The notes under the pieces: model-generated
Seen by the model: only the letters and a program-made list of their open reading frames with translations
What the model was told of the DNA's origin: nothing
Database searches by the model: none
IMG/VR virus record: IMGVR_UViG_3300045988_107526
Location: 1 to 64,000 of that record
Reading direction: 5' to 3' (one strand)
From: a virus
Length of the DNA stretch: 64,000 nt
Program-made: the position numbers and the translations under genes
Part shown: one piece after another, positions 1-45,577 of the stretch
Layout of the letters: each line of letters starts with the position of its first letter
How positions within the stretch are numbered: position 1 is the first letter of the stretch

Positions 1-3000
1 ACGTTAGTAGATAAAGGCATCATCGGTCAGAACGAGGTAGCACAGATGATGGATAGTCCTGAGCGACTTTCTGCACAAGGCAGGGAGTATGTGAAGAACC
101 TTCTTTTGGGTTCAATCTTCAAGCCTGAGACTATCAGAATGCTGGGCATCGACTCTACGGTGAAGAATAAGGCTATCAACGCTATCCGATCGGTGATGGA
201 CAACATGAAGTTGGGCGAGTTCTCTCTTCGTGATGAGATAGACCAAGCTATCCAGTTACTCTATGAGGCAAGACAGGGCGGCAATAAGGTTGATACGTTG
301 CTGAGAACACCGGACATGTTCGGTGAGGATGCAGCTAAGCGTTACTCTTCTATCTCTCAGATGATGGCTTTGGCTCTAGAAGGTAAGGTTTCTGATTTCA
401 GAGATTTGCTTGACGAATACAACCGCATCGCTAAGGCTAGAAATACTGGCGAGGGCAGTATCTTTGAGGAAGCTCCTACCAAGGAAGAGTTAGTAAAAGA
501 ATTTTTAGACTTTAAAAAATGGCAAGATTATGGAACAGGACATTCAGAAAATGAAGGAGTCAATGATGTTTCAGGCGTTGAAGAACCTAAACAGGAAGCA
601 TCAGGAGGAAATGAACCATCAGAAGCAGGAGAAGGAAGAGTAAAATCTGACCTTGACCGCATTACCGAGACTGACGAGGAATTTGAGGTTGAAGGTAAGT
701 ACGGAACCATTTATAAGAAGAAGTATCTGATTGATGGTGACAAGGAGGTGATGAAGGTGGATGAGCCAAACAAGAACGGCGATTACACCGGTTCATACTA
801 TGAGTATAACGGCAAGAAGTATGGAGACCTGAGGGGTGTCTTTGAGCATCTTGACGACAAGCCAGATACTGGTTCCGAAGAAATGCCGGAAGGTCCTATC
901 TACGACCGCAAGAAGGCTTTGATTGATGAGATAAATGAGAGCGACATCAAGAAGAAGGATGATGCTTTTCAGCTTCTCTACAAGGCAGAAGACTTACTTG
1001 ATGATTATCTGGGCATTCCTCATGATGAGTGGAAACCAGAACCTTCTCGTAGTAATACGATTTCTGGTATTCTCAGCATGGCAAGAAATGTGCTAGATAG
1101 AATCAAGAATGAGCCAGTTGAACCTGCTACAGAAAAGCAGTTGAGTTATCTTGAACGTCTGACCTCTGACGATCCTACAACAAGAAAACTTCTTGAAGGT
1201 GTGAAGCTGAATAAGAAACAGGCAACTTGGCTTATCGGAAATATCAAGGGATTGAACGATAATTTGATGCGTCTGCATCCTGACGATATTGCAGAAACCG
1301 AGAAGTTCATTCATGACGGAATTGAGTACATGAAGAAGCTGAATGGTGAAACGTCTGATGAAGGCGGTCTCCCACTCCTTCCAAGAGAAGAGAAGCCAGA
1401 CCATCAGTTTAACCCGATTGAGGCAGCTGCAGCAGAGTTCAAGAAGGAGCATCCTTTGACCGAGGATGAGATTATGAATGCAGACGTGGACGAATTATCA
1501 AAGGATATGGCTTTGGACTATCTGAACGGAGAAGTTACAGACGATTTGCACCGTGCTATCTACGAAAGCATCTATGCTAAACGCAAGGGATTGAAGGCTG
1601 AACCAAAGGTTGATACACCTAAAACGGAACCATCTGCTGACCCTATGGAAGGAATCAAGAATGCAGCAGAAGGATTCGAGAAGGAGAAGAAAACTAAGGC
1701 TGAGACAGAAAAGAAGCCTCAGCAAACTGCTGACGATGCAGCAGTAGCAGCTTCCAACAAGAAGGTTAATGGCCTTTGGAAAGAACTCATGAATGCCGGC
1801 AAGGATGAAATGTCTGCTTCGTTCATCGGTCTTAACTCTAAACAGCTGGAGGTATTGCCTAAGCTGGTGAGCGCCATGGCAGAGAATGCTTATCTGAGAA
1901 TCAAGAGAGGTATGCACAATCTTGAAGACGTGGTGAAGGAAATGCGAAAGGAGTTTGCCCCTGCTGCCAAGATTTTCAAGAAGGAAGATGTGGATGCCAT
2001 CTATGAACAGATGATGAATATCCGCTATCGTGATGGTGAGCAGCGCATGAGCTTGAAGGAGTGGGCTGACTACTACGAAAAGACTTCGCCTAAGCATCAG
2101 GAGAATCTGGTGGGCGACTCAAAGACTGCAGAGGAAAGAAAGCAGGCTGAGAAGAAGTTTATTGATACCGTGAACATAAAGTTGGCATTCAAAGATAAGT
2201 TTAACGGTATTGTTGAGCTGAGAAAGATAGCTGAGAGAGTTGGTTTGAAGGATATTAAGGATACAGACCTTCAGGAGCTTGCTGAAACTGCCATTGTTAA
2301 GTGTGCAAGAGGTATCGCTTCTTCGAATGCTACCGATAATGAAGGTAAGTTCAAACGCATCTTGAACCTCTATGAGAATCAGCCTTCACTCAACCAGCGT
2401 GATTCTGAGCGAGTGATGAAGCAGCAGTATTCTACCCCTGCACCTTACGCTTTCCTTGCGGATATGTATGTGAAGGGCAACGGTAAGGTGATTGAGAGTG
2501 CTCTGGAGCCTAGTGCCGGCAACGGTATGCTTACCATCGGCTTGCCAATGGATAAGGTACATGTTAACGATATTGATGCGCAGCGATTGGCGAACCTGAG
2601 AAGACAGGGTTTCAAGAACGTGACCAGTCAGGACGGAACTCAGCCTTTTGCAGACAAGGACGTTGACGTGGTGGTGACAAATCCACCATTCGGTAGTGCT
2701 ACCCCTAAGGAGTATGACGGCTATAAGATTTCTTCTTTGGAAGGACAGATGGCTATAAATGCCTTGGAGAGCATGAAGGACGATGGCCGTGCTGCCATTA
2801 TCATCGGCGGCAAGACGGAATACGCCAAGAACGGAAGTCTGAATCCAAAGGATAAGGCTTTCCTTGGTTATCTCTATAGCCACTATAATGTGGAGGACGT
2901 GATTAATGTGGATGGCAGTCTCTATGCAAAACAGGGAACCAGCTACCCTACACGTATTATATTAATAAACGGAAGACGCTTGAACGAGAATGCCTTTCCA

Positions 3001-6000
3001 CCAGTAAAGGATAAGGCTAGAGCTGAGACCGTGAAAGATTATGACGAACTTTATAAACGAATTGAAGATGATATACTACGAGGTGAACGGATGGATTCTT
3101 CCATCGGAAGAGAAACAAGAAGTGCTCAACCAGAACCTGATAAACAAGGCGCTGCTGGTACTCCTAAAGAGAGAGTACGAGCAGGAGAACGAGGAGGAAG
3201 CAAACCAAATGGTGAGCGAGAGCCTGACCTATTTGACTCCACTTCCGTATCAGGAACCCATGATGACTTGGAGAATCAACGAGGAACCGAGCCAAGACAA
3301 GATGGAGGACTTCCTAATGGAGATAGTAGAACAGACGGAACAGGGGCAGAGCCTTCTCCAAGCAAAGAACCAACCACTGGAACCAATGAGCAGCGAGGAA
3401 ATGGATCAGGAGGAGCTGGACGGAATGACGCTCAGCCAAGTACTGATGAATCTACCAACGCCGGGAGCGGAATCGGACCACGGGGACAATTACAGCGGGT
3501 GGACAAATCCGTACGTGGATTAAGTACAGAGAAAGTTACCTATACCCCTAAGAGTGGAAATCCATTCACTCTGAAAGCAGTTATGCCTGCCGATCAGCAG
3601 GATGCAGTAAACAAGAACCTCGAAAAGTTGGGCGATGCAGACCAGTTCCTTGTTGATGAACTGGGCTATAATGATAAGGATGATTTGTATTCTCATCTTG
3701 CCGCAGAGCAGGTTGACTCTGTAGCCCTTGCCTTGCAGCAGGCAAAGAAGGGCAACGCCTTCATTATTGGAGATATGACCGGTATCGGTAAGGGAAGACA
3801 GGCTGCTTCTCTTATCAGATACGCCAAGAAGCAGGGTCAGGTTCCTGTATATTTCACCAAGACAGCAGGATTGCTGAGTGATGTTTATCGTGACTTGGTG
3901 GATATTGGCAGCCCAGACCTAAGACCATTTGTATTCGGTAGTGCCAAGGAAGCTGCCATTACCGACTCAGACGGAAAAGTTGTATTTGCTTTGCCATCGA
4001 AGAGCGAGGTGAAGCGAGTGCTTGATTACATCGAAAAGAACGGAAAACTGCCAGACGAATACGACTACGTGCTGACTACTTACAGCCAAGTAAGCAATGG
4101 AGTCTACGAGTTTGACGAGAACGGTGCCCGAAAAGAGAAGAAACTTGCGAAGGGTAAGACATTCGGAGCTGCTGCCCTTAGCGGACAAAGAAGACGTGAT
4201 GCTATTGAAAAACTGATGGACAACGCCTATCTTATCCTTGACGAAAGCCACACGGCTGGTGGTAATAGCGGTCAGGGCAACTATTTCCAACACATTATTC
4301 AGAAGGCAAAGAACGTTACCTTCTTCTCTGCAACCTTTGCCAAGAGACCAGACAATATGCCTATCTACGCTTTGCGTACTGCTATGAACGAGGGCGGTAT
4401 GAAATCATCCGACTTGATTGATGCGGTAAAGCGTGGTGGTGCAACCTTGCAGGAGATTATGAGCCAGACCTTGACGCAATGCGGTCAGATGATTCGCCGT
4501 GAGCGAGATATGACTGGCGTAACCATCGACTGGAAGGCGATTGATGATCCTGAGCGAGTACAGGAACAGCGAGAACAGTATGATAGTATCATAGGATTGT
4601 TTAATGATATTATCAATTTCCAAAAGAAATATGTTACCGATTACGTTGACAAGCGCAACGACGAGCTGGCTGAAATACAGGCTAGTATTGGAATCAAGAA
4701 GGGAACGGCTGCCCTGGGTATCAAGAATCAGCCATTTGCCAGCAAGGCATTCAATACCGTTCAGCAGGTTCTTCTCTCTCTGAAAGCGAAGTCTGCTGCA
4801 GAACGTGCCATCGACTATTTGAAGCAGGGCATGAAGCCTGTGATTGCGTTAAACAATACCAACGAATCTCAGACTGGCAACCTTGCGCTTGGTGAGGAAA
4901 TGGACGCACCAGACTTGGGTACATCTTTGAAGAAGGGTCTGGAGGGTACACTTCGCTATACTCAGAAGGACGCAAAGGATAATAGCGAAAGCGGCTACAT
5001 CAAGCTTTCTGATTTGGGCGATGAGGCAGTTGAGGCTTATCACGAACTGGAAAAGAAGATTGAGCAGACAAGTACCGGTCTTTCACTCTCTCCTATTGAT
5101 GTTATCAAGAACGAGCTGCAGAAGGCAGGTTATAAGGTTGGCGAGCTGACCGGTAGACAGACCGAGTTCGTTTATAACGAAAACGGAACTGTTACCAAGG
5201 TGAAGCGTGCTGATACAGACAAGAAGAAACTCGCGCGCGACTTTAACGATGGTAAGATTGATGCGCTTATTCTCAACAAGAGTGCAGCAACCGGTATTTC
5301 CCTTCATGCTTCGAGCAAGTATAAGGACCAGAAGAAGCGTGTGATGATTGTGGCGCAGCAGCAGCTCGACGTAAACGATGAGGTTCAGATGCGTGGACGT
5401 ATAGACCGAACCGGTCAGGTGGCTAGAGGTGCATACGAGTATGTGGTTTCTCTTATCCCTGCCGAGCAGCGACTGCTGATGATGTTTAAGGCTAAATTGA
5501 AGTCACTTGATGCCAACACTACTTCTTCTCAGAAGAGTAAGTTCAACGAAATGGAAGTTTCCGACATTACCAATAAATATGGTGATAAGGTAGTTCGTGA
5601 GTATATGGCAGAGCATCTTGACCTTTATGCACGAATGGCTGATCCATTCGGATGGGAAAAGACTCATGGCGATGATTTGTCTAGAATCGACCCACAGACT
5701 CTTGTTGCAAGCGGTAGCGGTGTTGGCGATGGCGAAGCTGGTGCCGATGCAAGCAAGTTACTTGGTCGTATGGCTCTGCTGAGAGTTTCTGAGCAGGAGA
5801 AGATGTTGCAGGAGATTGGCGAGCTTTATGCAAACGAGATTCAGCGACTCAACGAAATGGGAGAGAATGATTTGGAGATTACCGAGCTTCCTTTGAAGGC
5901 TAAGACGCTCCACAAGGAAGTTTGGAAGCAGGGTGCAGAGCCGGGCGGCGATAACGCCTTTGCCGATAACACCTATATAGAAAAGGTGAACATGGCCATC

Positions 6001-9000
6001 TTGAAGAAGCCAATGAAGGCTTCTGAGGTGAAGGCTTCGCAGGAAGGCTTGACTGGTGGTAAGACTTGGGATGAATATAAGACCGAGAAGAAGGCTGCCG
6101 TGAAGGAGTACTTCGACCAGAAGATTGCGGACGAGACTCAGAAGTATGAGGAGCGTGCCGTGAAGGCTGCAACCAAGGCGAAGGAGAAGTATATCAAAGA
6201 TGCTAAGAAGGGTCAGAAGGATTCTGGTATGAGCGATGAGCAGATTGAGAAGATGGCTGGCTATCAGTATGAGAACATCTATAAGCAGGAGAAAGATAAG
6301 CTGAACGATGTGGAGAAGAACCTGAAAGCTAAGGCTGAAATGTTTGAGCGTGTGCTTGATACCTTCGATACTAACGGCGCTTTCGTTCTGCCTATGGATA
6401 TGAACAATCCAAACGAGTTGAGCGGATTTGGCAACAGTTACGGTAGACTTATTGACATCAAGATTACTGATAATTACTCGCCTAACGCCTCTTCGGTTTC
6501 CTTCGCTACCTTGGATGGCAGAAGAAAGATTACCTTCCCTATCGCAGGTAAGGTTGGTTCTGGTGAAAATAAGGTGGATATTATCGGTTCTATCGACCGC
6601 ATGACCAAGCAGGCTGCCGGTATGGGAGACAGTCATCTAAGAGTATTGAACCAAAACTTTGATAACTGGGATAGACTGACTAGCAATGAGAGCCGCAAGA
6701 ATGGCTATATTGTAACTGGCAATCTGATGCAGGCTTTGGTTGACAGCAAGGATCAGGGCTTGGGCGGTCAGCTGGTGAAATATACAACTGATACAGGCGA
6801 GGTGAAGACAGGTATCTTGATGCCGGACCGATTCGACCCTAAGGGTTTAACTACAGATGCTCCTATCAACAGCGTGACCGAGAAGTTTGAACTTTCTTCT
6901 TGGCATGGTGGTATTGACGAGGTTACTTCATCGGATGGTGAAGTGAAGGTGAAGCGCATAGACAACAATCGTGGTAACTTCTACGAGCTTCGTGTGCCGA
7001 AGAGCAAGGCGAAGGGCGGCAAGTACTTCATGGATGAAGATTTGCTGAAACTGGTTAATGGCAACAACTTCGAGACCAGAGGTAATAATATGCTTGCCGA
7101 GTTCAAGCCAGAGCAGTTGAAGCCAGTACTAGACCGCCTGTCTAAGATGGGCGTGAAGGTACAAGAGGAGCGCAAGACTTCTGAGGATGAAGGCACCCAC
7201 TTCCGTGAGGACCGAGGCTTGCAGTATTCTAAAACAGATACAAAAGATGTTAAGAATAGTAGAATCATTCCGGAAGATGTAGATAAAAACGTATCTTCGC
7301 AGATTGAAAAGAAGTTTGATTCTGCCATTGAAGACATTGTAGAGTATGCAGAAGACAGAGATAAGTCTAGACTTGTTGATGATGCAGGCTATGCCGTGGA
7401 GGAGTTTTCCAATCTTGGCAGAAGCGTTATAGAATATTACAAGAATGATTATGAACGAAAAGTTGAAAAGTTATCAGGACAGCATACCGGAGGACATCTT
7501 GGTGGTACGAATGACGGTAAGGGAAATAGAGGCTCTTATCTACTGCAATATTATAAGACCATTCTCGCCGTCGCTGACAGAGAACTTGCCTATAGAGACG
7601 CTAGAGCAAAGAATCTCAGAGAGACTTTGGGATTGCACCCAGGAGGAACGTTCACACTTGGAGCCGTTGAACGAATTTTTAAAGAAACAAATCGAGATAA
7701 AGAAAAGGCTAAACTCTTCCAAAGAGTTCTCGATATAAACAAGCGTCTTGGTGTAAGCATCAAGGTAAGTGCCGAGAGCCCGAAGAAGAGATCAGGAGAA
7801 GCAGACATCTACAGGAACATTGATTTGTATATTGATGGTCTGACAAAGACCAAGGCTCCAGACTACGCTGCCCCTACTGTTATGCTGCATGAAATGATTC
7901 ATGAGGTAACAATGGGTGCTATTAATCTCGTCAAGAAAGGCAAGGCTGAGGGCATGCTGACCCATAAACAGATAGAGGGCGTAAAGACTATCCTCGAAAT
8001 CTATGACAAGGTTAAGGACGATAAGGAACGCTTCAAAGAAGAGCCTTACGGTCTGACTGATGCTTACGAGTTGACTGCTCAGATGGCAGATTCTAGACAG
8101 AGAAAGGCGATGGACTTGTCTATCTGGGATAGAGTTATGAATGCAGCACACGAATTTGCAAGAAGGGGTGATCGCTCTATCTTGCAGAGAGTGAAGGATG
8201 CCATCAAGAAACTGTTTGAGGTTTCTGACAAGGATAAGATGGACAAGGCTATCAACGACATCATGGATGATTTCAATGAAACCATTGATGATATTTCCAT
8301 GAACGAGATTGAACAGGACGGATTCTCATATAAGGTCACAGATAAAGACGAGCTGGACCGACTCAACAATGAGAAGACTTTCAGAATGTATAGCGGAATG
8401 CAGGAGGTGGATGGTAAGCTCTACTCCCCTATGGCTGCTATCATTGACGGAAAGCGTACTGATGCTACAGAGATAGGTGCTTGGATGGGCGCAGACGAGC
8501 GACCTGACCTTGTGAAGAACGGCAAGTTCCAACTTGTGAAGACCGATAAGAACCCTGGGGCAGGTGAAGGACCAGTGCCAGCGGCTTATAACCCTTACAT
8601 GCACACTTCCACTTCGGTGATGAACGATCAGTTCTCTGGTGCTTACGCTAGAGGCAACATCAAGGTTGTGGAATGGGAGATTCCTGAGAGCGAGAAGACT
8701 AGCGGCTATCACGCCGAGGGCGCAAAGAACTCTGTGGGCTTGGTGCCTTGGACTTCTGGAACAGTAAACAGCCTCCTGCCAAAGGACAGACAGAGAAGCG
8801 TGATGCTCTCTAGATGGAGAAAGGCAGTAAGAATATTGCCTGACGAGGAGGTTGCTGAGAAAATCGCCGACCAACTGAGAGGAACAGGATTGGCTATCCC
8901 TTGGAATGTAGTTACCCCTAACCAGTTGAGAGAGCTTGTAAAACTTGGTGTTCCTATCACTACCGTAGAGCAAGGCAGACAGAACCCTGAAACAAAGGAG

Positions 9001-12000
9001 AAGTTCTTGAAGCAGATGGCTGAACTGGAACAGGAGTTTCCTCAGGCTAAGTTCGTAAACGTAAAAATGACAAAGGATGCCTACAAGGAATGGGGCAAGA
9101 ATGGCGGCACCAAGTTCCGCACAGATTACGGCGAAAGCAACTACCCTACTTCATCGGTTGAGAACCATGTTGAGAATGTTGCTCAGAAGACTGGCGCAAA
9201 GGTGAACATGGTTTCATCGGTTGATGAAATCACCAACAAGGCGGCTAGGGCTGCTATTGAGGAAGGCAGAAAGATAACTGGCTGGTATGACGAGAAGACT
9301 GGCGAGGTGCATCTTTACATGCCTAATATACACGATAGATATACTGCCGAGAAGACTATCTGGCATGAGGTGGTTGGACACAAGGGAATGAGAGAGTTGT
9401 TTGGTGACGAACGATTCGACAAGTTCCTTCGTGAAGTATGGTACGACTTGGATAAGCCTGAGAATGCAGCTTTGAAGAAGCTGGTGGATGAGGAGAGAAA
9501 GTTCAATCCTCTGAATATCTATGATGCCATTGAGGAAGGTATCGCCCGACTCGCCGAGGATGGAAAGGGCGAACCGGGTTTCTGGAATGGCATCAAGAAT
9601 AAGGTATCTGATTTCCTTCACGAAATCGGCTATCGTATTGCTCCTAATACTAAAGATGTGAAGTACTTGCTTTGGTTGAGCAAGAACTTGCAGAAAAATC
9701 CGAATGACCCTTATTGGAAGCTGAGAGCCGAGGCGGTGAAATACCGTCTCGACCATGAGCGTATGCCTGCTGTTGTGGCGCATGATGGTATGTTCTACGG
9801 AAATGACGGAAAGGTTAGAAGTATGGATAATCTTACCAAGGCTGAGTGGAATGAGGCTACAGATGGTGAGATTCACTTCCGCACTACCCCATCTGCCGGC
9901 ACGGCACTTGACAGATACCACAGTTCTCTTGACGAGCACGGCTATATGTTCACCGAGAGCTATATGGATAATATGCTTTCGTTGAAGAAGTTGATGAATG
10001 CGATTGTGCCTGACAAGAAGATTGAGGATATTGCCTCTTCTGAGAATCCTTATATGCTGCAGAACACCATGCAGGGTGCAATGAGTGATGCGGCTCAGAT
10101 GTTTGAGCGAAACGTGATGAAGCCTCTTGACAAGGCCATGGCCGATGTGCTTGATGCTTTCGATGGAAAAAAGGACGATGAGAAGATAAGAAACTTCAAT
10201 CTCTACATGATTACCAAGCATGGTTTGGAGAGAAACCGTATCTTGTATGTGCGTGATGCCTTGATGTATATGCGCATGAACGAGAAGACCAAGAAACTAG
10301 CTGATACTATTGAGTTCGATTGGAACAACGAGAAAGCTACCCTTGACGAGAAATTGGAGCGTGGAGACATCGACTTGAAGACTTATTATGAGCGCATGGA
10401 CGATTTCATCCGTACCTACGTGGATAGTGACAATAAGTTTGATGCTGGCGAACATGACTATTCGGGTATTCACGCTATACAGGAAGTGGCTAAGTCTTCT
10501 GATCCTTACGATGATGCTGAGGCTATCGCTAGCGTGATGGATTCAGAAGCAAAGATGGAGAGTATCAAGAAGGGGTCTGTTAAGGACTATTGGGATAAGG
10601 TGAAGGCTGCTACCCAGTATTCTATTGATAGTGACTATAAGAATGGTCTTATCAGCAGAGAGCTTTACGGTCATGTATCTGATATGTTCAACTGGTATGT
10701 GCCTTTGAGAAAGTATGATGAGGCTACTGCAGAAGATACCTACGGCTACATTACTGAGCAGGGCGACCCGAAGAGTTACATCGGAAGCACGATTATGAGA
10801 GCGAGAGGACACAAGTACCTGAGCGAAACAAACGTACTGGCGCAGATTGGTGCGATGGGTAACAGAGCTATCAAGAATGGCGGTATGAACGCTATCCGTC
10901 AGGCATTTGCAAGATTCGTAAGAAACAACTCGAACAATAATCTTGTGACGGAGACTAGGGTTTGGTACGCCGATGACCCTATCACTCACACCACCGTGGA
11001 GCGTTACCCAGACATTCCCGAGGACGCTACGGCTGATGAAATAAATCAGATAGTAGCAGACTTCAATATGGAAATGAAGGATTTGGAATCAAAGGGGTTG
11101 GCGACAAAGGTGTATCGAAGAGGAAGAATCGGCTATAAGTTCCAAAGAGCAGAGAACAAATCGCAGCATATCGTAGATGTGAAGATTGCCGGAAGGACCC
11201 ATACCTTTATTATCAACGGAAATCCTAGAGCGGCGCAGGCTCTGAATGGATTGCTGGAGAACTCTGGCGCAAAGGGAATCATGAAACCATTGAGTTCTAT
11301 ATCAAGAATGATGGCGCAGTTGTGTACATCTTATAACCCTGAGTTCGTGATGCGAAACATCATGCGTGATGCGGAGTTTGCATCGAGCAACGTTACTTCT
11401 AAGGAGGGTGCAAGATATGGTGCGCTCTGGGCGAAGTACTATGCGCAGTTGGGCTTGTATAAGGGTGCTTCAAATATCAGCTTCAAAGATTTTAGCGGAA
11501 CTACTGGCTTGGGCTTGTTTGCCAAGTATCGTAACGGAACACTTGATACTTCTGACAAGGTACAGCGATATTTCAAGGAGTTTATGGAGAACGGCGGCGA
11601 AACCGGTTGGGTTCAGATCAAGAACATGAAGGACTGGACCAAGGAGTATAAGAAAGATGTGAAGAGCGAAAGAAGCAAGATTGACAAGGGCGGTGCTGCC
11701 CTTCGTGACTTCTTCTTCGGAAATCTGGCGAACATCAACGAGGTGGCTGAGAATATCGCCCGATTTGCTACCTATTGTGCGAGCCGAGACAGTAACCGCT
11801 CTATCATCCGTTCTGTCTATGATGCGAAGGAGGTATCTACCAACTTCAACCGCCATGGTAGTGGTGATGCCATCAAGAGTTTCAAGAACGGAGAAATGAG
11901 CTGGGCAGAGGAGAAGAGAAGATGGGCTTATGGTTTTTCTGCTAGCTATCTCAGACATTGTTCTATGTTCTTCAATGCCGGTATTCAGAGTACAAATCTT

Positions 12001-13119
12001 CTTGTGAAGAACTTGAAGAATCATCCTGTAGGTACTTCTATCAATATGCTTGCCATTCCTTTTGCCCTAGGTGCTCTGGCTGCACTTGGAAACAATGTGC
12101 TGATTGCGAGTGAGGATGAGAAGGATAGAAAGGGCGTGAAGGATCCATACGGAGAGTTGCCTGACTACGTGAGAAGAAACAATCTCTGTATCTACAAGGG
12201 AGGTGGCGAGTTCGTAACTATTCCGCTTGCCATCGAATTGAGAGCCTTCTATGGATTGGGAGACTTGGCGGCTGGATTGACTTTCTCGCCTAACGTTAGC
12301 GGACAGAAGAATCCTGCCTTGGATGCCGTGGGATGTATGTCGCAGCTTGTGCCGGTGATGGACTATCTCGGCAACTCTTCGGCTGGCAAGGAGCCATTGA
12401 ACGAGACGATCAAGGCTTTCTCTCCTTCTGCCCTATCTCCTTTCGTGGAATGGGAGTTAAATACCGACTGGAAGGGTGCGCCGATTGAAAGACGTGGTGA
12501 CTGGAATGAAAATTCCCCTGCTTGGCAAAGAGCCTACAAGGGTGTGCCTGACGGATATATGGCTGTGAATAAGTTTGTGAATGCGCAGACGAATGATGTA
12601 GCCAAGGGTAATGAGGATATGCTTGGTAATAGTTTCCTGGATATGGTAACGAACCCTAGTATGCTAAATCATTACATCGGTGGTCTTGGCGGTGGTGCTG
12701 CTACCTTTACAGAGCGAGCTATTGGTGTTATTAAACACGGAGGCGACACAGAAACCAAGGATATTCCTTTCCTTCGCTCCCTACTCTATACGCCAAGTGA
12801 GCAGAGCAGCTTGCAGCGAACAAAGAGCAAGTGGTATAACTACAAGGACGAAATGGAAAAGACCATGGCAAACGTGGACCGACTGAAATCGAAGAACGTT
12901 CCGATTGATAAGAGAATCACGAATATCGGTGAGTATTTCCATTTTCAAAACTCCAAGGAGGCTGCCAAGGTGAGAGTAATCGAGCTGGCAGAGAAACAGA
13001 TGAATCGATGGAAGAAAATGAGGGACAAGGCTAGCGATACCGAATCTATTAACTTCGCCAACCAGAATATTGACAGGATCATGATGGATGCGGTGGATGA
13101 ACTAGATAGATTGGAATAA
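1..13119 (+). CDS. Giant polyvalent protein, 5' partial (at least 4372 aa): N6-adenine MTase + Strawberry-notch/SNF2-like helicase + two zincin-like motifs + C-terminal hydrophobic segments
   Basis: One uninterrupted ORF (track 46..13119). The same frame has no stop back to nt 1, so the true start lies outside the window. Motifs read directly: LEPSAGNG, NPPFG, GDMTGIGKGR, DESH, QMRGRIDRTGQ, HEMIH, HEVVGH. Confidence 0.85.
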   Translation, partial: TLVDKGIIGQNEVAQMMDSPERLSAQGREYVKNLLLGSIFKPETIRMLGIDSTVKNKAINAIRSVMDNMKLGEFSLRDEIDQAIQLLYEARQGGNKVDTLLRTPDMFGEDAAKRYSSISQMMALALEGKVSDFRDLLDEYNRIAKARNTGEGSIFEEAPTKEELVKEFLDFKKWQDYGTGHSENEGVNDVSGVEEPKQEASGGNEPSEAGEGRVKSDLDRITETDEEFEVEGKYGTIYKKKYLIDGDKEVMKVDEPNKNGDYTGSYYEYNGKKYGDLRGVFEHLDDKPDTGSEEMPEGPIYDRKKALIDEINESDIKKKDDAFQLLYKAEDLLDDYLGIPHDEWKPEPSRSNTISGILSMARNVLDRIKNEPVEPATEKQLSYLERLTSDDPTTRKLLEGVKLNKKQATWLIGNIKGLNDNLMRLHPDDIAETEKFIHDGIEYMKKLNGETSDEGGLPLLPREEKPDHQFNPIEAAAAEFKKEHPLTEDEIMNADVDELSKDMALDYLNGEVTDDLHRAIYESIYAKRKGLKAEPKVDTPKTEPSADPMEGIKNAAEGFEKEKKTKAETEKKPQQTADDAAVAASNKKVNGLWKELMNAGKDEMSASFIGLNSKQLEVLPKLVSAMAENAYLRIKRGMHNLEDVVKEMRKEFAPAAKIFKKEDVDAIYEQMMNIRYRDGEQRMSLKEWADYYEKTSPKHQENLVGDSKTAEERKQAEKKFIDTVNIKLAFKDKFNGIVELRKIAERVGLKDIKDTDLQELAETAIVKCARGIASSNATDNEGKFKRILNLYENQPSLNQRDSERVMKQQYSTPAPYAFLADMYVKGNGKVIESALEPSAGNGMLTIGLPMDKVHVNDIDAQRLANLRRQGFKNVTSQDGTQPFADKDVDVVVTNPPFGSATPKEYDGYKISSLEGQMAINALESMKDDGRAAIIIGGKTEYAKNGSLNPKDKAFLGYLYSHYNVEDVINVDGSLYAKQGTSYPTRIILINGRRLNENAFPPVKDKARAETVKDYDELYKRIEDDILRGERMDSSIGRETRSAQPEPDKQGAAGTPKERVRAGERGGSKPNGEREPDLFDSTSVSGTHDDLENQRGTEPRQDGGLPNGDSRTDGTGAEPSPSKEPTTGTNEQRGNGSGGAGRNDAQPSTDESTNAGSGIGPRGQLQRVDKSVRGLSTEKVTYTPKSGNPFTLKAVMPADQQDAVNKNLEKLGDADQFLVDELGYNDKDDLYSHLAAEQVDSVALALQQAKKGNAFIIGDMTGIGKGRQAASLIRYAKKQGQVPVYFTKTAGLLSDVYRDLVDIGSPDLRPFVFGSAKEAAITDSDGKVVFALPSKSEVKRVLDYIEKNGKLPDEYDYVLTTYSQVSNGVYEFDENGARKEKKLAKGKTFGAAALSGQRRRDAIEKLMDNAYLILDESHTAGGNSGQGNYFQHIIQKAKNVTFFSATFAKRPDNMPIYALRTAMNEGGMKSSDLIDAVKRGGATLQEIMSQTLTQCGQMIRRERDMTGVTIDWKAIDDPERVQEQREQYDSIIGLFNDIINFQKKYVTDYVDKRNDELAEIQASIGIKKGTAALGIKNQPFASKAFNTVQQVLLSLKAKSAAERAIDYLKQGMKPVIALNNTNESQTGNLALGEEMDAPDLGTSLKKGLEGTLRYTQKDAKDNSESGYIKLSDLGDEAVEAYHELEKKIEQTSTGLSLSPIDVIKNELQKAGYKVGELTGRQTEFVYNENGTVTKVKRADTDKKKLARDFNDGKIDALILNKSAATGISLHASSKYKDQKKRVMIVAQQQLDVNDEVQMRGRIDRTGQVARGAYEYVVSLIPAEQRLLMMFKAKLKSLDANTTSSQKSKFNEMEVSDITNKYGDKVVREYMAEHLDLYARMADPFGWEKTHGDDLSRIDPQTLVASGSGVGDGEAGADASKLLGRMALLRVSEQEKMLQEIGELYANEIQRLNEMGENDLEITELPLKAKTLHKEVWKQGAEPGGDNAFADNTYIEKVNMAILKKPMKASEVKASQEGLTGGKTWDEYKTEKKAAVKEYFDQKIADETQKYEERAVKAATKAKEKYIKDAKKGQKDSGMSDEQIEKMAGYQYENIYKQEKDKLNDVEKNLKAKAEMFERVLDTFDTNGAFVLPMDMNNPNELSGFGNSYGRLIDIKITDNYSPNASSVSFATLDGRRKITFPIAGKVGSGENKVDIIGSIDRMTKQAAGMGDSHLRVLNQNFDNWDRLTSNESRKNGYIVTGNLMQALVDSKDQGLGGQLVKYTTDTGEVKTGILMPDRFDPKGLTTDAPINSVTEKFELSSWHGGIDEVTSSDGEVKVKRIDNNRGNFYELRVPKSKAKGGKYFMDEDLLKLVNGNNFETRGNNMLAEFKPEQLKPVLDRLSKMGVKVQEERKTSEDEGTHFREDRGLQYSKTDTKDVKNSRIIPEDVDKNVSSQIEKKFDSAIEDIVEYAEDRDKSRLVDDAGYAVEEFSNLGRSVIEYYKNDYERKVEKLSGQHTGGHLGGTNDGKGNRGSYLLQYYKTILAVADRELAYRDARAKNLRETLGLHPGGTFTLGAVERIFKETNRDKEKAKLFQRVLDINKRLGVSIKVSAESPKKRSGEADIYRNIDLYIDGLTKTKAPDYAAPTVMLHEMIHEVTMGAINLVKKGKAEGMLTHKQIEGVKTILEIYDKVKDDKERFKEEPYGLTDAYELTAQMADSRQRKAMDLSIWDRVMNAAHEFARRGDRSILQRVKDAIKKLFEVSDKDKMDKAINDIMDDFNETIDDISMNEIEQDGFSYKVTDKDELDRLNNEKTFRMYSGMQEVDGKLYSPMAAIIDGKRTDATEIGAWMGADERPDLVKNGKFQLVKTDKNPGAGEGPVPAAYNPYMHTSTSVMNDQFSGAYARGNIKVVEWEIPESEKTSGYHAEGAKNSVGLVPWTSGTVNSLLPKDRQRSVMLSRWRKAVRILPDEEVAEKIADQLRGTGLAIPWNVVTPNQLRELVKLGVPITTVEQGRQNPETKEKFLKQMAELEQEFPQAKFVNVKMTKDAYKEWGKNGGTKFRTDYGESNYPTSSVENHVENVAQKTGAKVNMVSSVDEITNKAARAAIEEGRKITGWYDEKTGEVHLYMPNIHDRYTAEKTIWHEVVGHKGMRELFGDERFDKFLREVWYDLDKPENAALKKLVDEERKFNPLNIYDAIEEGIARLAEDGKGEPGFWNGIKNKVSDFLHEIGYRIAPNTKDVKYLLWLSKNLQKNPNDPYWKLRAEAVKYRLDHERMPAVVAHDGMFYGNDGKVRSMDNLTKAEWNEATDGEIHFRTTPSAGTALDRYHSSLDEHGYMFTESYMDNMLSLKKLMNAIVPDKKIEDIASSENPYMLQNTMQGAMSDAAQMFERNVMKPLDKAMADVLDAFDGKKDDEKIRNFNLYMITKHGLERNRILYVRDALMYMRMNEKTKKLADTIEFDWNNEKATLDEKLERGDIDLKTYYERMDDFIRTYVDSDNKFDAGEHDYSGIHAIQEVAKSSDPYDDAEAIASVMDSEAKMESIKKGSVKDYWDKVKAATQYSIDSDYKNGLISRELYGHVSDMFNWYVPLRKYDEATAEDTYGYITEQGDPKSYIGSTIMRARGHKYLSETNVLAQIGAMGNRAIKNGGMNAIRQAFARFVRNNSNNNLVTETRVWYADDPITHTTVERYPDIPEDATADEINQIVADFNMEMKDLESKGLATKVYRRGRIGYKFQRAENKSQHIVDVKIAGRTHTFIINGNPRAAQALNGLLENSGAKGIMKPLSSISRMMAQLCTSYNPEFVMRNIMRDAEFASSNVTSKEGARYGALWAKYYAQLGLYKGASNISFKDFSGTTGLGLFAKYRNGTLDTSDKVQRYFKEFMENGGETGWVQIKNMKDWTKEYKKDVKSERSKIDKGGAALRDFFFGNLANINEVAENIARFATYCASRDSNRSIIRSVYDAKEVSTNFNRHGSGDAIKSFKNGEMSWAEEKRRWAYGFSASYLRHCSMFFNAGIQSTNLLVKNLKNHPVGTSINMLAIPFALGALAALGNNVLIASEDEKDRKGVKDPYGELPDYVRRNNLCIYKGGGEFVTIPLAIELRAFYGLGDLAAGLTFSPNVSGQKNPALDAVGCMSQLVPVMDYLGNSSAGKEPLNETIKAFSPSALSPFVEWELNTDWKGAPIERRGDWNENSPAWQRAYKGVPDGYMAVNKFVNAQTNDVAKGNEDMLGNSFLDMVTNPSMLNHYIGGLGGGAATFTERAIGVIKHGGDTETKDIPFLRSLLYTPSEQSSLQRTKSKWYNYKDEMEKTMANVDRLKSKNVPIDKRITNIGEYFHFQNSKEAAKVRVIELAEKQMNRWKKMRDKASDTESINFANQNIDRIMMDAVDELDRLE
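2506..2694 (+). other. N6-adenine DNA methyltransferase motif block inside the giant ORF
   Basis: Motif I-like LEPSAGNG (2506-2526) followed about 55 aa later by the motif IV NPPFG tetrad (2680-2694). This order is typical of gamma-class amino-MTases. Confidence 0.75.
3079..3520 (+). other. Low-complexity G/E/R/P/T/N-rich linker between the MTase and helicase modules
   Basis: Translation RGERMDSSIGRETRS...GSGGAGRNDAQPSTDESTNAGSGIGPRGQ has no hydrophobic core pattern. It looks like a disordered spacer. Confidence 0.6.
3769..5418 (+). other. Strawberry-notch/SNF2-type helicase core inside the giant ORF
   Basis: Motif I GDMTGIGKGR (3769-3798), motif II DESH (4240-4251), motif VI QMRGRIDRTGQ (5386-5418). 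The G-x-GKGR P-loop is characteristic of Sno-type ATPases that occur fused to MTases. Confidence 0.7.
7888..7902 (+). other. HEXXH zincin-like motif 1 (HEMIH) in the giant ORF
   Basis: Context TVMLHEMIHEVTMGA, read codon by codon. Confidence 0.5.
9364..9381 (+). other. Second metallopeptidase-like motif (HEVVGH) in the giant ORF
   Basis: Context KTIWHEVVGHKGMRELFG. The spacing is H-E-x-x-x-H, not canonical HEXXH. Confidence 0.35.
12040..12285 (+). other. Two hydrophobic, TM-like segments near the C-terminus of the giant ORF
   Basis: INMLAIPFALGALAALGNNVLIA (12040-12108) and FVTIPLAIELRAFYGLGDLAAGLTF (12211-12285). Confidence 0.5.
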
Positions 13120-17859: not shown

Positions 17860-18057
17860 TTACTCCCCATACTTTGGCTCCTCATACACCAAGTTATGCT
17901 CATCTACGTAATCCTTGGCTTCTGAGTATGTATCAAAATCTACTGCGGTGGTATTTACTGCTGGGAATACCTCAGCATTGTCACCTTCCTCTGTGAGAGG
18001 GAACATCATCTTAGTTCCCTCATGTACTACCTTGAACTTTTTTGTTAACTTATTCAT
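17860..18057 (-). CDS. Hypothetical protein
   Basis: 65-aa acidic ORF at the end of the minus-strand tail-fibre unit. Confidence 0.45.
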   Translation of the reverse strand: MNKLTKKFKVVHEGTKMMFPLTEEGDNAEVFPAVNTTAVDFDTYSEAKDYVDEHNLVYEEPKYGE

Positions 18058-18098
18058 ATCTTGTTTCCTTTCTTTACATTAATATTGAACTTGGTACA

Positions 18099-18983
18099 TT
18101 ATGCAGGAGTGATTGAGACTGTGTAGTCTTTCTGCTGCAATGTTGTTATAGCTGCATCTGATGCTGATGTACGAGTTCCTTTGCATATAATTTTCTTAAA
18201 CCAACTTTGACTTTGTGTATTTGCAACACATGCAGATTGGTCATTTAACATCTTATCAATGTCTGTTCCAAAATCAGCATATTGGATAGCCATAATCTGA
18301 TGTGTTGTTGGGCGAGTTTGCTTCCATGTGCATGGAACAAAACTTGCAGAATCAAACCCCAATTGGCATCCATTTATTTGAGAAACTTCACCTTTAACAG
18401 TTGCAGGAGGAAAAAATGAATTAAATTTCGAGAATTTTTTTAATACAGAAATATCTCCATACATAGATGAGTTGCTCAAATCCAGCGTGTCTGAAAGACC
18501 ATTTACTGAGTTTATACAAGAAATATCTTGCTTTTTTGTTCTATTCAGTTTTATATATCCAAAAGAACTTTCTTTAGAGAATCTTGCAAAATCAAAATTA
18601 TCTTCGGAATTAAAACTAAATCTAGACTTTTCTGGTGAAGCAAATGCAAAACGGTTATAATCTCCTATTCCTTTGATATTTATAAATATTCTTAATTTGT
18701 AAATCGGAACTTTCAAACCTCCATTATTTACAACCTTAACATAAATACGGTCTCCCCAACTACCACCATTATATGCTGTTAATTCTTTAGTTGTTCCTAA
18801 GTTTTGTGCATAATTTTCATCTGTAAAGTACGCATCACCGAAGGTTCTAATAGTAGTGCCTTCGGTAAAACCTAGAGATACATCAATTTTTCCTTCTTGA
18901 GGAAGAATAACTAATTCTCCTATTTTTGGCAATGAATCATCATCAATAACTCCTTGCAATTTTGTTACTAAACATTTTTCCAT
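18099..18983 (-). CDS. Hypothetical protein downstream of the tail fibre (possible fibre accessory or receptor-binding protein)
   Basis: 294-aa AT-rich ORF starting 11 nt after the fibre gene stop. The function is inferred from position only. Confidence 0.6.
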   Translation of the reverse strand: MEKCLVTKLQGVIDDDSLPKIGELVILPQEGKIDVSLGFTEGTTIRTFGDAYFTDENYAQNLGTTKELTAYNGGSWGDRIYVKVVNNGGLKVPIYKLRIFINIKGIGDYNRFAFASPEKSRFSFNSEDNFDFARFSKESSFGYIKLNRTKKQDISCINSVNGLSDTLDLSNSSMYGDISVLKKFSKFNSFFPPATVKGEVSQINGCQLGFDSASFVPCTWKQTRPTTHQIMAIQYADFGTDIDKMLNDQSACVANTQSQSWFKKIICKGTRTSASDAAITTLQQKDYTVSITPA

Positions 18984-18994
18984 AATTATATATT

Positions 18995-21900
18995 TTAATT
19001 GTTATACAATAGTTTCATATTCTTATAATCATATAATAAATTACCAATATGCCTTCCGTGAGAATCTGAATGACAACCAACTCTGTGTAATGAAATATAT
19101 TTATGTTCTGTATCTACAGCAAATATATCAAATAAATCATCACTATAAGTATTTTCGATTCTATCAAAATTCCCAGTAAAGTCAAATTGTGGATTGTTAG
19201 GATTGCGACTACATCCAGCTGTATCTATTAAAATCTTTAATTGTTTCGGATAATTGCTAGATAAGCCTATTGCGTCTGAATGATGATGACCACACAACCA
19301 ACATATAAATTTACCTGCTCCATACTCATCGTCATGGTCTGCCATGAATGCTTCTACCAAATCAGAATATTCTTTATTATTATTATCACCATAGTAAGAA
19401 CTACTTGGTCTGTCTAGATTTGTAAAAGTACAATCAATAAGAGTGTCTATTTTTTGTGTATGAATCATACATATTACATTAAATCCTTTTTGTCTTGAAT
19501 CTTCCAATATGTTCTTGAACCAATCAGCTTGCTCTCCTTTATCGACTGTATCACCATCAGGGAATGATTCAGAAGTATAGCTTTCCGTGTGTCCATCTGC
19601 ATATTCTTTCTTGCAATATATAACATCTCTCCAATGATATACATCCAATGCTATTATTCTAATCTTTGCACTTTCATAATCTTTGTAGAAGTAGCATTTA
19701 TTCTCGACAGAGTTTATTTTTGTTTCTGAAAGATATGGTTTAATAAACTTATCATAGCATTCTTTAGAAGAATATGTTGGGACATTATAAGCTACTATGT
19801 ATTTTTTCACAATATTGCTTTGATTGTCTTCTTCCGATAATTCATATTCTCTGCTCCCTCCAAACACCTCGTGATTACCCAAAGCATTCAATATACAACC
19901 TGCACCATTTTCTTTCCAAAATGAGAAATTAGTTGTAAAGAAATTATTAGCATCACCTGTTGAGACAATATCATCAATGTATTCTTTATATTGGTTATAA
20001 TACTTTATTATGCGCTCCAAACGTCTAGATACGCTATGAAGGTCAGAGAAATAAAGTAAAGTAAATTTTGGCTTAATGTAAGGACCACTCTCTACTGTAT
20101 GGTATTTGAAATTAGCCAAAACTGGTTTTTCAGAGCGGATTGGATATAATGAAAGTATATCACCACATGCTATTTTATCAGACAATTCTTTGCTTCCAAC
20201 AACTGTAGATATAATATCTTTATTTGTTGGTATAGAATTGCTTTCAAACTTATTAATAACTCTAGTTCCATCCTTTCTAAGACCTTCAATTACTTTACCA
20301 TCTTTATCAGTCTTGACATATATGAACTCTGGGTTATCTACATATTCACTGGACATGCCTAAAGCCTTGATGTTACCACTAAACTCAGTATATCCATTAA
20401 GTACTCTAGTTCCATCCTTTCTAAGACCTTCAATTACTTTACCATCTGCATCAGTCTTGGCATATATGAACTCTGGGTTATCCTGCAAAGAGAAAACGTC
20501 AAGAAGTTCTTTGAGGTTGGTATCTATTGTACCTACATTTTCCTTCAATGACGCAAGGTCTGATTGAAGCTGAGATATAACTTGCTTCAAGGCATTGACT
20601 GCATGGATTTCACCAATAATTTGTCCGTCTCTTCTGATACCAAGGAGTATATGATTAGCAGCATCAAGCCAAACAGCGAAGAACTCTTCATTCTGCTCAA
20701 CGTGATACATTTCATTGAGAGGATAATATGGCTTGCCAGTTGCTCTGTAGAAACCAAAGAGTACCTTGTCTTCTGAATCTACTATTGCTTTAAGAAACTC
20801 CTCATTTTCGATTACTCTAAAGCATTCCTTTACTTCATTTTCAATTAGAGACTTGCCTTCTTCTTTATCTACCTTTGTATCTTGAAGATTTTTAATATCT
20901 TCTCCTAACTTGGTGCTAACACTATTGAGATTTGTAAGGATGCTTGTAAGTGTCTGAGTATTATCAATACTAGCAAAGAAGTCCTTCAACTCCTTCAATG
21001 TGTCAATAGCACTTGTAGTATCATCATCACCCAATATAGTGGTAACCTTATCTGACAAAAGAGTTACTTGTGACTGCAATCTGTCCTCTACTGCACTTGT
21101 CTTGCCAAATACAGGAGTACCATCCCACTGAATACCGAAGAGAAGTTTGTCTTCTACATCTACCTTTGCAAAGATGAACTCTTCATTCTGAATGTAGCGG
21201 AAAGGAGTTTCTACTACCAATCCTTCCTCATCTTTTATAGCTGTCTTTTCAACAATCTCATCTACTGCACTCTGTATGTTAATTGCAGTAAGTTTTGACT
21301 TCTCATTATTATAAGTAACAGCAGTAGCTTGACTTGCACCACCAGTAGCAGCTATAGACTTAATAGTTTCTTCTATCTGAGTGCTGCGAGTCTGCAATAA
21401 TGAAATATCTTCATCATTGGCAGTGATTTGTTGCTGCTTATCGTCAATCTGCGATTGCTTATCATCTAGCTGTTTCTGATGGTCTTTCAGTGTATCATCT
21501 ACGTTTTGAATGGTTTCTACCAAATTCTCAGGAAGACCAGTAGCTGCATTGATAGTCTGACGAAGCTCTGGGTCTAACTTCTCTACACCGATGGTGTTGT
21601 CTTTCAACTTGTCTTTGGTGATGGAGTTCTCTGCTAACTTCTCATTGGTGATACTGTCATCCTGTAGCTTCTCGTTGCTGACAGAACCATCAGCCATTTT
21701 TTCTGTAGTAACCGACTTATCGTCTAACTTCTCGGTCGTAACATTCAGGTCGGCAATCTTTTCCGTAGTAACACCAGAATCTTGAAGCTTCCCTGTTGTT
21801 ACATTTTGGTCTGCAATCTTCTGAGTAGTAACATTCCCGTCCGCAATCTTTGCTGTTGTTACAGAACAATCAGCCAGCTTTCGGGTGGTGATATTACCAT

Positions 21901-22000: not shown

Positions 22001-22265
22001 ATTTAATTTGTTTTGGTTCTGTAGAAGTGAATATTTGAATTTGGACGGTATCGGGAATAACCGATATACGGAACTCGAAGGACTGGGTGTCCTTGTGGCG
22101 ACGTATCGGGATGCTAGGGAAATTTCCCTTATCATCTGACTGACGGATAACCACCTTTCCTTTTTCCCTTAGCGTGATTCTTAGGAAAATATCACGGCGA
22201 AGAGTAAGGATTGGAGTTACCCACGCAAGTTCATTGGCATCGTATGTGGCTGTTACATTCTCCAT
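21987..22265 (-). CDS. Hypothetical protein
   Basis: 92-aa ORF whose stop overlaps the fibre start by 14 nt. Confidence 0.55.
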   Translation of the reverse strand: MENVTATYDANELAWVTPILTLRRDIFLRITLREKGKVVIRQSDDKGNFPSIPIRRHKDTQSFEFRISVIPDTVQIQIFTSTEPKQIKYAYI

Positions 22266-39301: not shown

Positions 39302-39769
39302 TTATTTCATAAACGCCATCCAAATTGTTTGGTTCTTGATGGTGGTACGATGTCCGAATATCGGTTTGTAATCGGTGATTGCCTTTAGCACATCACTAAC
39401 CTTTATCTGTTGCTCGTTCCACTTAAAAATGAGCGTTCCGTTTGTTTTCAGCACCCTCATGCCCTCATGGATAGAATCATTGATGAATGCTTGCCAATTT
39501 TCGGGCAGCTTACCATATTTCTTGCATAACCAAGAGTTCTTTCCTACTTTTAGCAGGTGAGGAGGGTCGAAAACAACCATATTAAATGTTTCATCTTCGA
39601 ATGGCAAATTAGTGCAATCGGCTATCATATCTGGTTGAACGTCTAATTTGCGTCCATCACATAATGTGTCGTGATATTCTCTTATGTCGGTAAAAAGTAC
39701 CTGTGGGTCCTGCTTGTCGAAATAAAACATACGAGATCCGCAACACATATCTAATATTCTTTGCTTCAT
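39302..39769 (-). CDS. Small putative DNA amino-methyltransferase (DPPH motif)
   Basis: 155 aa. Motif I-like ILDMCCGS and motif IV-like VVFDPPHL. Confidence 0.5.
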   Translation of the reverse strand: MKQRILDMCCGSRMFYFDKQDPQVLFTDIREYHDTLCDGRKLDVQPDMIADCTNLPFEDETFNMVVFDPPHLLKVGKNSWLCKKYGKLPENWQAFINDSIHEGMRVLKTNGTLIFKWNEQQIKVSDVLKAITDYKPIFGHRTTIKNQTIWMAFMK

Positions 39770-45575: not shown

Positions 45576-45577
45576 GA

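Follow-up and report, generated by a model that had tools for sequence, protein, structure and literature searches.

The 64,000-nucleotide window analysed here, i.e., positions 1 to 64,000 of the virus record IMGVR_UViG_3300045988_107526, opens inside a gene for one giant protein of a gut Segatella copri phage of about 74 kb. This protein, 5,929 amino acids (aa) long in full, almost certainly belongs to the phage-type polyvalent proteins. The first-pass annotation of this stretch, which had described a polyvalent methyltransferase-helicase-zincin protein, was confirmed as a real observation and as essentially right in its interpretation. Indeed, each testable feature of the phage type, as described by Iyer et al. 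(2017, J Bacteriol, PMC5512222), was found. Firstly, several unrelated domains occur in one chain, namely a ParB domain, a candidate DNA methyltransferase (MTase), a Strawberry-notch (SNO) helicase, two zincin-like domains, and an LPD38 domain. Secondly, the window has the gene content of a portal-terminase phage, encompassing a portal, a major capsid protein (MCP) and adaptor of SU10 type, a terminase-like protein, and a tail fibre. Thirdly, the two markers ddrB-ParB and LPD38, which the same text restricts to the phage type, were present; LPD38 scored 80.5 bits and ddrB-ParB (PF18763) is recorded for the exact product. The class is described there as having 2-15 domains per polypeptide, often more than 2,000 aa, and metallopeptidase (MPTase) domains that may process the polyprotein. 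A conjugative element as the carrier, also brought up by the first reading, was rejected on context, as no type IV secretion system genes were seen and phage structural genes were present.

Integrity of the giant gene

Reading frame 1 of nucleotides (nt) 1-13119 contains 4,372 sense codons and a single stop at its end, and the other five frames contain 53-439 stops across the same region. From the base composition, about 262 stops are expected per 4,372 codons, the probability of none being about 1e-117. The frame is already open at nt 1, indicating that the gene is cut at its 5' end by the window edge; counted from the first ATG, the open reading frame (ORF) spans 46..13119. This bears out the claims of one ORF of at least 4,372 aa, of a 20% share of the window (20.5% as measured), and of a protein larger than what is visible. 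The window is 100% identical (0 mismatches) to a 74,088-bp ENA scaffold (ERZ28595307, LIJU14-1_SAMEA2338853 scaffold_314), and Logan, other ENA, and NCBI contigs are likewise 100% identical over every overlapping base. All these identical assemblies, which possibly come from one sample and hence show that different assemblers give the same result but not necessarily that different samples do, carry the gene as a single called product of 5,929 aa with PF18763, AAA_34, Helicase_C_4, and LPD38. It has a predicted mass of about 662 kDa and its gene takes up 24% of the genome. Recovery of the missing 5' end, proposed in the first-pass annotation, thus gave the full length; residues 1-1356 were read from locus L006, and residues 1357-1557, including the ParB core, are represented by the relatives P0003 and P0004 only (83-84% identity to the adjoining window). 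Window residue n corresponds to full-length residue n+1557, and residues and motif positions below follow the window numbering.

A DNA-level scan with the gene region returned 183 matches in IMG/VR, on contigs of typically 72-78 kb, of which 80 loci were kept for a check of frame integrity. An exact match to a 52-nt stretch from the window start was not found in IMG/VR. The frame was intact from the locus edge to the stop in 78 of the 80 relatives, most of these frames exceeding 4,650 codons, and the intact relatives range down to about 71% identity in the C-terminal module. As these relatives were sampled without bias, the single giant ORF can be considered the conserved state. Exceptions are an S. 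copri isolate assembly (L001) and a Logan contig (L002), which share 84-94% DNA identity with the window across aligned blocks and in which the region is called as 5-6 ORFs. The splits are net single-base deletions, four in L001 and five in L002, all in the same direction, without net frame-shifting insertions and without nonsense substitutions; they may represent either assembly error or real decay. Several of these deletions consist of the loss of a G between A runs (AAGAA to AAAA), and a third relative, P0003, appears to carry a +1 insertion. Programmed frameshifting, or a set of several genes, had been suspected from the nine one-nucleotide deletions and was dropped in view of the 78 intact relatives and of a bias in the search that surfaced the split copies. 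Indeed, the protein-homologue search returned no match longer than about 1,970 aa, although a 5,929-aa product is on record, so that any copies it surfaces are fragments or broken. The reading of the single ORF as an artefact, or of the gene as truly several genes, therefore has the two split copies in its favour and is highly improbable, and for the window itself it is refuted: an open frame of this length is not expected by chance, hidden stops caused by sequencing error were looked for and identical assemblies from different pipelines carry the gene intact, the IMG/VR relatives are open over the part of the gene held in each locus, and purifying selection runs across the break points of L001 and L002.

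Module architecture of the protein

The modules (Table 1) were delimited with an alignment of 73 sequences (72 distinct IMG/VR relatives plus the window), and 75 homologues were mapped separately onto the protein. The ratio of nonsynonymous to synonymous substitution rates (dN/dS) was determined pairwise, module by module, for the window protein against six relatives. Every module except the disordered linker is under purifying selection (dN/dS 0.03-0.33).

Table 1. Positions of the modules of the giant protein, of its split equivalents, and of other phage genes in the window
Feature	Position (nt)	Residues (window)	Strand	Remark
3' 74% of the polyvalent protein gene	1..13119	residues 1558-5929 of 5,929 (full-length)	+	stop codon included
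C-terminal extension/tail of DdrB-type ParB region	1..333	1-~150 in module map	+	ParB core just upstream of window
Acidic low-complexity linker	from 508	170-237	+	composition scan
Variable insertion	901-1350	301-450	+	gap fraction 0.83-0.85 across 73 aligned sequences
Conserved region preceding MTase	1351..2148	451-716	+	75-93% column identity; dN/dS 0.10-0.19
Predicted N6-adenine (amino) DNA MTase module	2149..3069	717-1023	+	motif I EPSAGNG 836; motif IV NPPFG 894
Disordered G/S/E/P-rich linker	3070..3540	1024-1180	+	composition scan aa 1018-1181
SNO SF2 helicase/translocase module	3541..7200	1181-2400	+	GIGKGR 1261; DESH 1414; QMRGRIDR 1796
Insert sub-module A, helical + zincin-like domain	7213..8340	2405-2780	+	HEMIH at aa 2630
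Insert sub-module B, beta-rich domain	8341..9132	2781-3044	+	dN/dS 0.03-0.10
Conserved C-terminal module of phage-type giant polyvalent proteins	9133..13116	3045-4372	+	
HEXXXH zincin-like domain	9133..9780		+	HEVVGH at aa 3122; dN/dS 0.04-0.12
Sole strongly hydrophobic transmembrane (TM)-like segment of visible protein	12028..12114	4010-4038	+	Kyte-Doolittle, 19-residue mean >1.5
LPD38 domain	12142..12771	4048-4257	+	PF18857, 80.5 bits vs cut-off 27
Split giant gene in relatives	L001:11630-22379 and L002:9267-21560			equivalent to window 1-12779
Tail-fibre gene	18995-22135		-	
RecT	44655-45575			
SbcC-like ATPase	46053-48053			
dUTPase	48423-48944			
NinG	48956-49528			
Integrase	51310-52491			

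The visible protein starts with the end of the DdrB-type ParB region. P0004 is 84% identical to window aa 1-243 (BLASTP) and matches P1 DdrB (E=1e-8) over 355 aa, reaching P0004 residue 654, which equals window aa ~111; PF18763 is recorded for relatives as well as for the exact product. The 150-aa insertion between the ParB region and the MTase is optional, being found in only about 15% of the 73 aligned relatives. The conserved region that precedes the MTase had no Pfam match. Upstream of the window, a long Gly/Ala/Ser/Thr-rich, mildly hydrophobic region occurs at about aa 380-640 of the full-length protein (L006:1-4069 (-)); it had no Pfam match and fails the threshold for TM-like hydrophobicity. 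By eye, we take it to resemble regions of tape-measure or ejection proteins.

The MTase module is probably of the gamma-class N6-adenine type, as judged from motif order and profile, although it missed the threshold of a curated model. A profile of seven homologues matched the HsdM subunits of type I systems (StySJI, EcoR124II, and EcoKI; E 8e-6 to 1e-4), and motifs I and IV do not vary among seven distant homologues or in 71-72 sequences of the 73-member alignment; the Pfam model MTS (aa 839-941) reached 20.0 bits versus a cut-off of 23 (E=5.7e-4), and NCBIfam gave no match for the protein. The claimed N6-adenine MTase therefore stands as far as motifs and HsdM profile are concerned and falls short at the Pfam cut-off. 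On sequence grounds, the identification of the SNO helicase is solid. AAA_34 (aa 1233-1528; 49.8 bits versus a gathering cut-off of 27) and Helicase_C_4 (aa 1711-1961; 89.1 bits versus 30.5) both exceeded their gathering scores, and 72 of the 73 aligned sequences have the helicase motifs (Walker A GxGKG, DExH, and motif VI QxxGRxxR) either unchanged or with conservative substitutions. For the motifs of both the MTase and the helicase, 65-72 of the 73 show no change, one divergent sequence being without them altogether. All motifs cited in the first-pass annotation were thus present at their places, and the profile searches that it had named as a way to expose them as spurious did not do so. 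SNO homologues align unbroken to about aa 2382-2406; a C-terminal extension of about 440 aa beyond the Pfam boundary is conserved and was kept in all SNO-type homologues. The dN/dS values of the SNO module were 0.04-0.15.

Between the MTase and the helicase, the disordered linker had a dN/dS of about 1 or more (about 1-3) in five of the six comparisons and of 0.34 in the sixth. Its dS was only 0.03-0.04 in four comparisons versus 0.2-0.4 in the flanking modules, and it seems to have a recent history different from that of its flanks, perhaps as a recombination tract. Differences in dS of up to ten-fold between modules of one pair indicate mosaic recombination. In addition, relatives swap in or add MuF_C, LPD3, LPD13, LPD23, InPase, PBECR1/3/5, ART-PolyVal, and C5-MTase domains. 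The MuF_C domain of relative P0026 was considered as evidence for a packaging slot and dropped, as MuF_C is an RNase-like PBECR effector and not the portal-binding part of MuF.

The approximately 2,600 residues downstream of the helicase, which the first-pass annotation had regarded as dark except for two metallopeptidase-like signatures, are not uniform, since about 440 belong to the SNO module, about 640 to a two-domain insert, and about 1,330 to the C-terminal module. The insert is missing in P0012-P0020, which are close relatives, and in 17 sequences of the 73-member alignment, and its two sub-modules occur independently in other proteins; sub-module B was found without A in polyvalent proteins bearing LPD3, PBECR, or ART domains. 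The motif of sub-module A across relatives is HEM[IL]H. An AlphaFold2 (AF2) model of the insert (aa 2385-3050; pLDDT 78.2) placed HEMIH on helix H239-261, preceded by H183-199, E202-206, E215-217, and E222-226, with a separate beta-rich domain after the zincin-like part. The best Foldseek matches of the insert, a Zn-peptidase (3c37, E=0.039) and the N4 virion RNA polymerase (vRNAP) gp50 (9pnt, probability 0.89, E=0.048), were both weak and would suit a zincin such as those of polyvalent proteins. The beta-rich domain was modelled confidently and had no match in the PDB.

The C-terminal module starts with the HEXXXH domain. Its motif HEVVGH, of the form HExxxH and not HExxH, is present in 73 of 73 aligned sequences, and a 25-sequence alignment revealed a conserved A-x-E-E-x-x-A-x-L-A-E helix downstream, which was not assigned as a metal ligand. 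The AF2 model of aa 3045-4244, built from the same 25-sequence alignment (pLDDT 77.5, pTM 0.68), shows the order H7-20, E23-27, E50-53, E58-62, and then H69-84 bearing HEVVGH, the rest being a large helical body with two small sheets. In PMC5512222, a helix and a three-stranded sheet before the motif helix, as well as an HEXXXH MPTase clade, are described. Both HE motifs are thus modelled in zincin topology, albeit with weak fold matches, so that the two metallopeptidase-like signatures held as motifs on helices of that topology and found no significant structural match. Indeed, a Foldseek search of the C-terminal model against the PDB gave a best E of 0.056 with TM <0.1, a multi-domain query possibly masking matches to small domains; the C-terminal profile gave only a spurious coiled-coil match against PDB sequences, and phmmer searches of PDB sequences with the whole protein, the insert, and the start of the C-terminal module yielded nothing meaningful. 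Structure prediction with Foldseek, as advised in the first-pass annotation, hence provided models for the insert and the C-terminal module and no significant PDB match for either.

Among predicted structures and sequences, the C-terminal module is widespread. It had 79 significant matches in BFVD (best E=2e-39, TM about 0.5-0.7), which typically form the end of giant phage proteins that elsewhere carry a lytic transglycosylase, RelA/SpoT, MTase, or helicase domain. PHROG 14770 matches it with E=4e-256. When aa 3050-4249 were run with HMMER against 1.84 billion representatives, 4,248 proteins matched at E<=1e-3, of which 1,028 reached E<=1e-30; the best 150 matches have a median length of 4,543 aa and a maximum of 6,330, 118 of them being at least 3,000 aa long, and the match nearly always sits at the C-terminus of the matched protein. 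These lengths indicate that giant size is normal for the family and that the present protein is no record. Deposited phage records matching part of the module amounted to 332, among them BS-TP4 gp3, many Vibrio phages, Stx-converting phages, and Bcep22-like podophages of Ralstonia and Burkholderia. The C-terminal module, with a dN/dS of 0.04-0.25, stays constant across a very large family in which the N-terminal domains vary. LPD38, a model of 189 positions, is only part of this conserved unit of about 1,300 aa that starts with the HEXXXH domain; a statement of such an extension beyond LPD38 was not found in the accessible part of PMC5512222. The module looks like the shared core of the family and not like a reservoir of lineage-specific counter-defence effectors, contrary to the earlier suggestion that the dark part may hold new effectors.

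Known relatives and the proposed mechanism

The present protein shares with the class of Iyer et al. (PMC5512222) the hub domains DdrB-ParB, N6A-MTase, SWI2/SNF2-type ATPase (here SNO), and zincin MPTase including HEXXXH, the phage-only LPD38, and extensive domain shuffling between relatives. It differs in its length of 5,929 aa, far above the '>2,000 aa' given there, and in its SNO-type helicase, which is reported there only 'in a few instances'. The closest deposited homologue is gp3 (5,391 aa) of the cultured temperate Bacteroides phage BS-TP4 (PQ571277.1); aligned over 98% of each module, the two proteins are 39.6% identical in the MTase-SNO module and 27.7% identical in the C-terminal module. 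Both phages have hosts in the Bacteroidales and distantly related capsid proteins, but gp3 is about 540 aa shorter, distant in sequence, and from a phage of a different host genus. The gp3 gene adjoins the portal gene; it is labelled 'hypothetical protein' and is absent from the discussion in PMC12694917, in which a second giant gene of BS-TP4, gp14 (2,645 aa; L094, PQ571277.1 26961-34898), is reported as the target of a diversity-generating retroelement (DGR). Among deposited phages, the MTase-SNO pair was found only in BS-TP4 and one Acinetobacter phage (tblastn, 1e-5).

The Dar system of the myovirus P1 provides the functional precedent. DarB (2,255 aa; MTase and helicase) and DdrB (995 aa; ParB and MPTase) have the same domain types in the same order, i.e., ParB, MTase followed by helicase, and zincin, but P1 spreads over separate proteins what the present phage carries in one chain; the helicase of the present protein is of the SNO type, and no P1 match to the C-terminal module, with LPD38, was found in the search of deposited phages. 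Both DarB and DdrB are head proteins according to liquid chromatography-tandem mass spectrometry (LC-MS/MS), DarB blocks EcoK and EcoB, and DdrB helps to load DarB (PMC9024508). BLASTP against DarB gave two short collinear matches only, a 99-aa MTase segment (E=3e-3) and a 28-aa helicase motif (E=6e-4), and P1 was not recovered by tblastn at 1e-5 with the MTase-SNO query. As far as the sequences can tell, the protein appears to resemble in its build a fusion of DdrB-type parts with DarB-type ones and is not demonstrably a DarB orthologue. The DarB-like architecture of the first-pass annotation hence survives as the succession of MTase and helicase, and its homology to DarB only at the level of motifs.

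Similarly, giant single genes of about 22% of the genome occur in Bcep22-like podophages (BcepMigl gp16, 4,658 aa; JC1 gp69, 4,515 aa; annotated as 'DarB-like antirestriction') and in Stx phages (VT2-Sakai orf71, 2,806 aa). These phages have proteobacterial hosts, and only part of the C-terminal module is homologous (24-25% identity): Stx phages share aa 682-1321 of the C-terminal query (E about 1e-25) and BcepMigl gp16 shares query aa 711-905 only. The MTase-SNO query matched no Bcep22-like or Stx phage at E<=1e-5. The DarB-like gp69 was detected in purified virions of the podovirus JC1 with 51 unique peptides (PMC9144972), a precedent linked to the present protein via the JC1 relative BcepMigl and not by direct comparison. 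A further parallel is gp50 of phage N4 (vRNAP, 3,500 aa), a giant, virion-packaged, and injected polyvalent protein with an MPTase-type domain, whose solved structure ranks high among the weak structural matches to the HEMIH insert; that match is non-significant, and the RNA polymerase module of gp50 is not found in the present protein, which has another effector set.

From these likenesses, a mechanism can be proposed that is, as a whole, somewhat more likely than not. The protein would be made late, loaded into the procapsid, and expelled into the cell together with the DNA. The ParB domain would keep it on the incoming genome, where the MTase-helicase pair may protect the DNA in cis from restriction, mainly of type I, as P1 DarB does, and the zincin-like domain(s) may release working pieces from the polyprotein by cleavage, either ahead of ejection or after it. 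Incorporation into the capsid and/or ejection would most likely be the shared task of the constant C-terminal module, and its conservation amid shuffled effectors would thereby be explained. Packaging has precedents in P1 DarB and DdrB and in JC1 gp69, all present in virions, and in the position of the gene next to the portal in BS-TP4 and of darB next to the portal in P1. Several points weigh against this mechanism. Packaging, ejection, proteolysis, methylation, and anti-restriction are activities that we infer for the present protein and its close relatives. The similarity to P1 DarB is at motif level, and the link to Bcep22-like phages covers about 195 aa with 25% identity (E=4e-6). The zincin-like domains had no significant structural match (best E=0.039), and a third zinc ligand was not established. 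Furthermore, the giant gene is not embedded between head genes in the present phage, the capsid-targeting signal of P1 DarB is N-terminal (PMC9024508) and the C-terminal role considered here is proposed from conservation, and 662 kDa is a large cargo for a capsid already containing 74 kb of DNA.

The main alternative, which is considered rather unlikely, is that of a primarily structural ejection or internal-core protein, comparable with T7 gp14-16 or P22 gp7/16/20. The C-terminal module and the Gly/Ala-rich N-terminal region would then build or gate a trans-envelope conduit for DNA, the enzymes being secondary cargo and the essential role being infection and not counter-defence. The strong constraint on the C-terminal module and its constancy across more than 4,200 clusters, while effectors vary, are in agreement with such a role, as are the podovirus-type phages behind many of the BFVD matches, the lytic transglycosylase of some of their partners, the podovirus type of the capsid, adaptor, and portal (SU10, P22), and the Gly/Ala/Ser/Thr-rich region in the N-terminal 1,356 aa. 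The only TM-like segment also falls in the C-terminal module, but it is a single one, with none in the N-terminal part, the rest of the module is a soluble-looking helical body, and no structure or sequence match to known ejection proteins was obtained. Moreover, a structural role of this kind is compatible with the packaging and anti-restriction mechanism and does not exclude it.

An unpackaged intracellular enzyme that acts on replicating phage DNA, for self-protection of the progeny or for control of a prophage or episome, is still less likely. ParB, MTase, and translocase are all plausible activities for DNA maintenance, the phage is probably temperate, and the giant gene lacks head genes on at least one side; in addition, one genome scan revealed no integrated copy, so that an episomal lifestyle is possible, as for BS-TP4 (PMC12694917). 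However, P1 DdrB and DarB and the DarB-like protein of JC1 occur in virions, and the fusion of unrelated activities with protease-like domains is best explained by co-delivery (PMC5512222).

A further, tentative possibility is that the C-terminal unit represents an uncharacterised, self-contained capsid-loading and ejection device that packs and injects polyproteins of up to about 700 kDa, with the effectors placed N-terminally. If true, it would constitute a general platform of phages for protein delivery, with a role like that of the terminal domains of N4 vRNAP or the capsid-targeting signals of T4, to which it would be structurally unrelated.

The phage and the significance of the gene

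The window encodes an SU10-type major capsid protein and adaptor, a P22-like portal, a tail fibre, a terminase-like protein, an integrase, RecT, NinG, dUTPase, and HNH. The giant gene is followed by a divergently oriented gene, several small genes, and then the tail-fibre/capsid cluster. The window end matches a region about 10 kb upstream of the giant gene in a relative, which fits a circular or permuted genome of about 74 kb. Close homologues derive from Segatella (Prevotella) copri assemblies; at the DNA level, no close deposited phage was found (megablast of the 13 kb against GenBank phages), and cultured temperate phages of Bacteroides have a distantly related capsid protein. The region 44655-52491 constitutes a lambdoid-style early and lysogeny block, and the phage is probably temperate. 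An integrated copy was not clearly seen in one scan of species-representative genomes, in which only two contigs of metagenome-assembled genomes (MAGs) matched; BS-TP4 has likewise been reported as not found in chromosomes (PMC12694917), and an episomal or pseudolysogenic lifestyle is possible.

Further observations concern the remainder of the window. An 87-bp direct repeat (20252-20338 and 20396-20482, 94% identical, 144 nt apart) lies within the tail-fibre gene and is probably a repeated fibre domain. Two islands of low GC content, 18001-20000 (31.6%) and 40001-42000 (32.4%) versus about 45% elsewhere, may be recently exchanged host-range or accessory cassettes, the first including the 294-aa gene after the tail-fibre gene as well as the 3' end of the latter. 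An ORF of 155 aa (39302-39769 (-)) had a weak N6_N4_Mtase match below the cut-off (E=9.6e-4) and could be a second, stand-alone DNA methylase fragment of the phage.

The class of polyvalent proteins, its likely packaging, and its likely role in anti-restriction were already described in publications from 2011-2017 onwards, and the present case extends this knowledge and does not overturn it. New here are the complete length of 5,929 aa, the conserved single ORF, the module map, and the finding that the dark C-terminal 1,330 aa are a hugely widespread, structurally unsolved constant unit. One chain joins the domain types that P1 divides between DdrB and DarB. With 183 IMG/VR matches, the phage lineage is widespread in the human gut, and a gene that takes up 24% of the genome represents a major investment in fitness that is probably directed against host defences. 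The cultured relative BS-TP4 makes the system experimentally accessible. The C-terminal module, shared by more than 4,200 clusters and without a solved structure or tested function, may hold the key to the delivery of megadalton-scale cargo.

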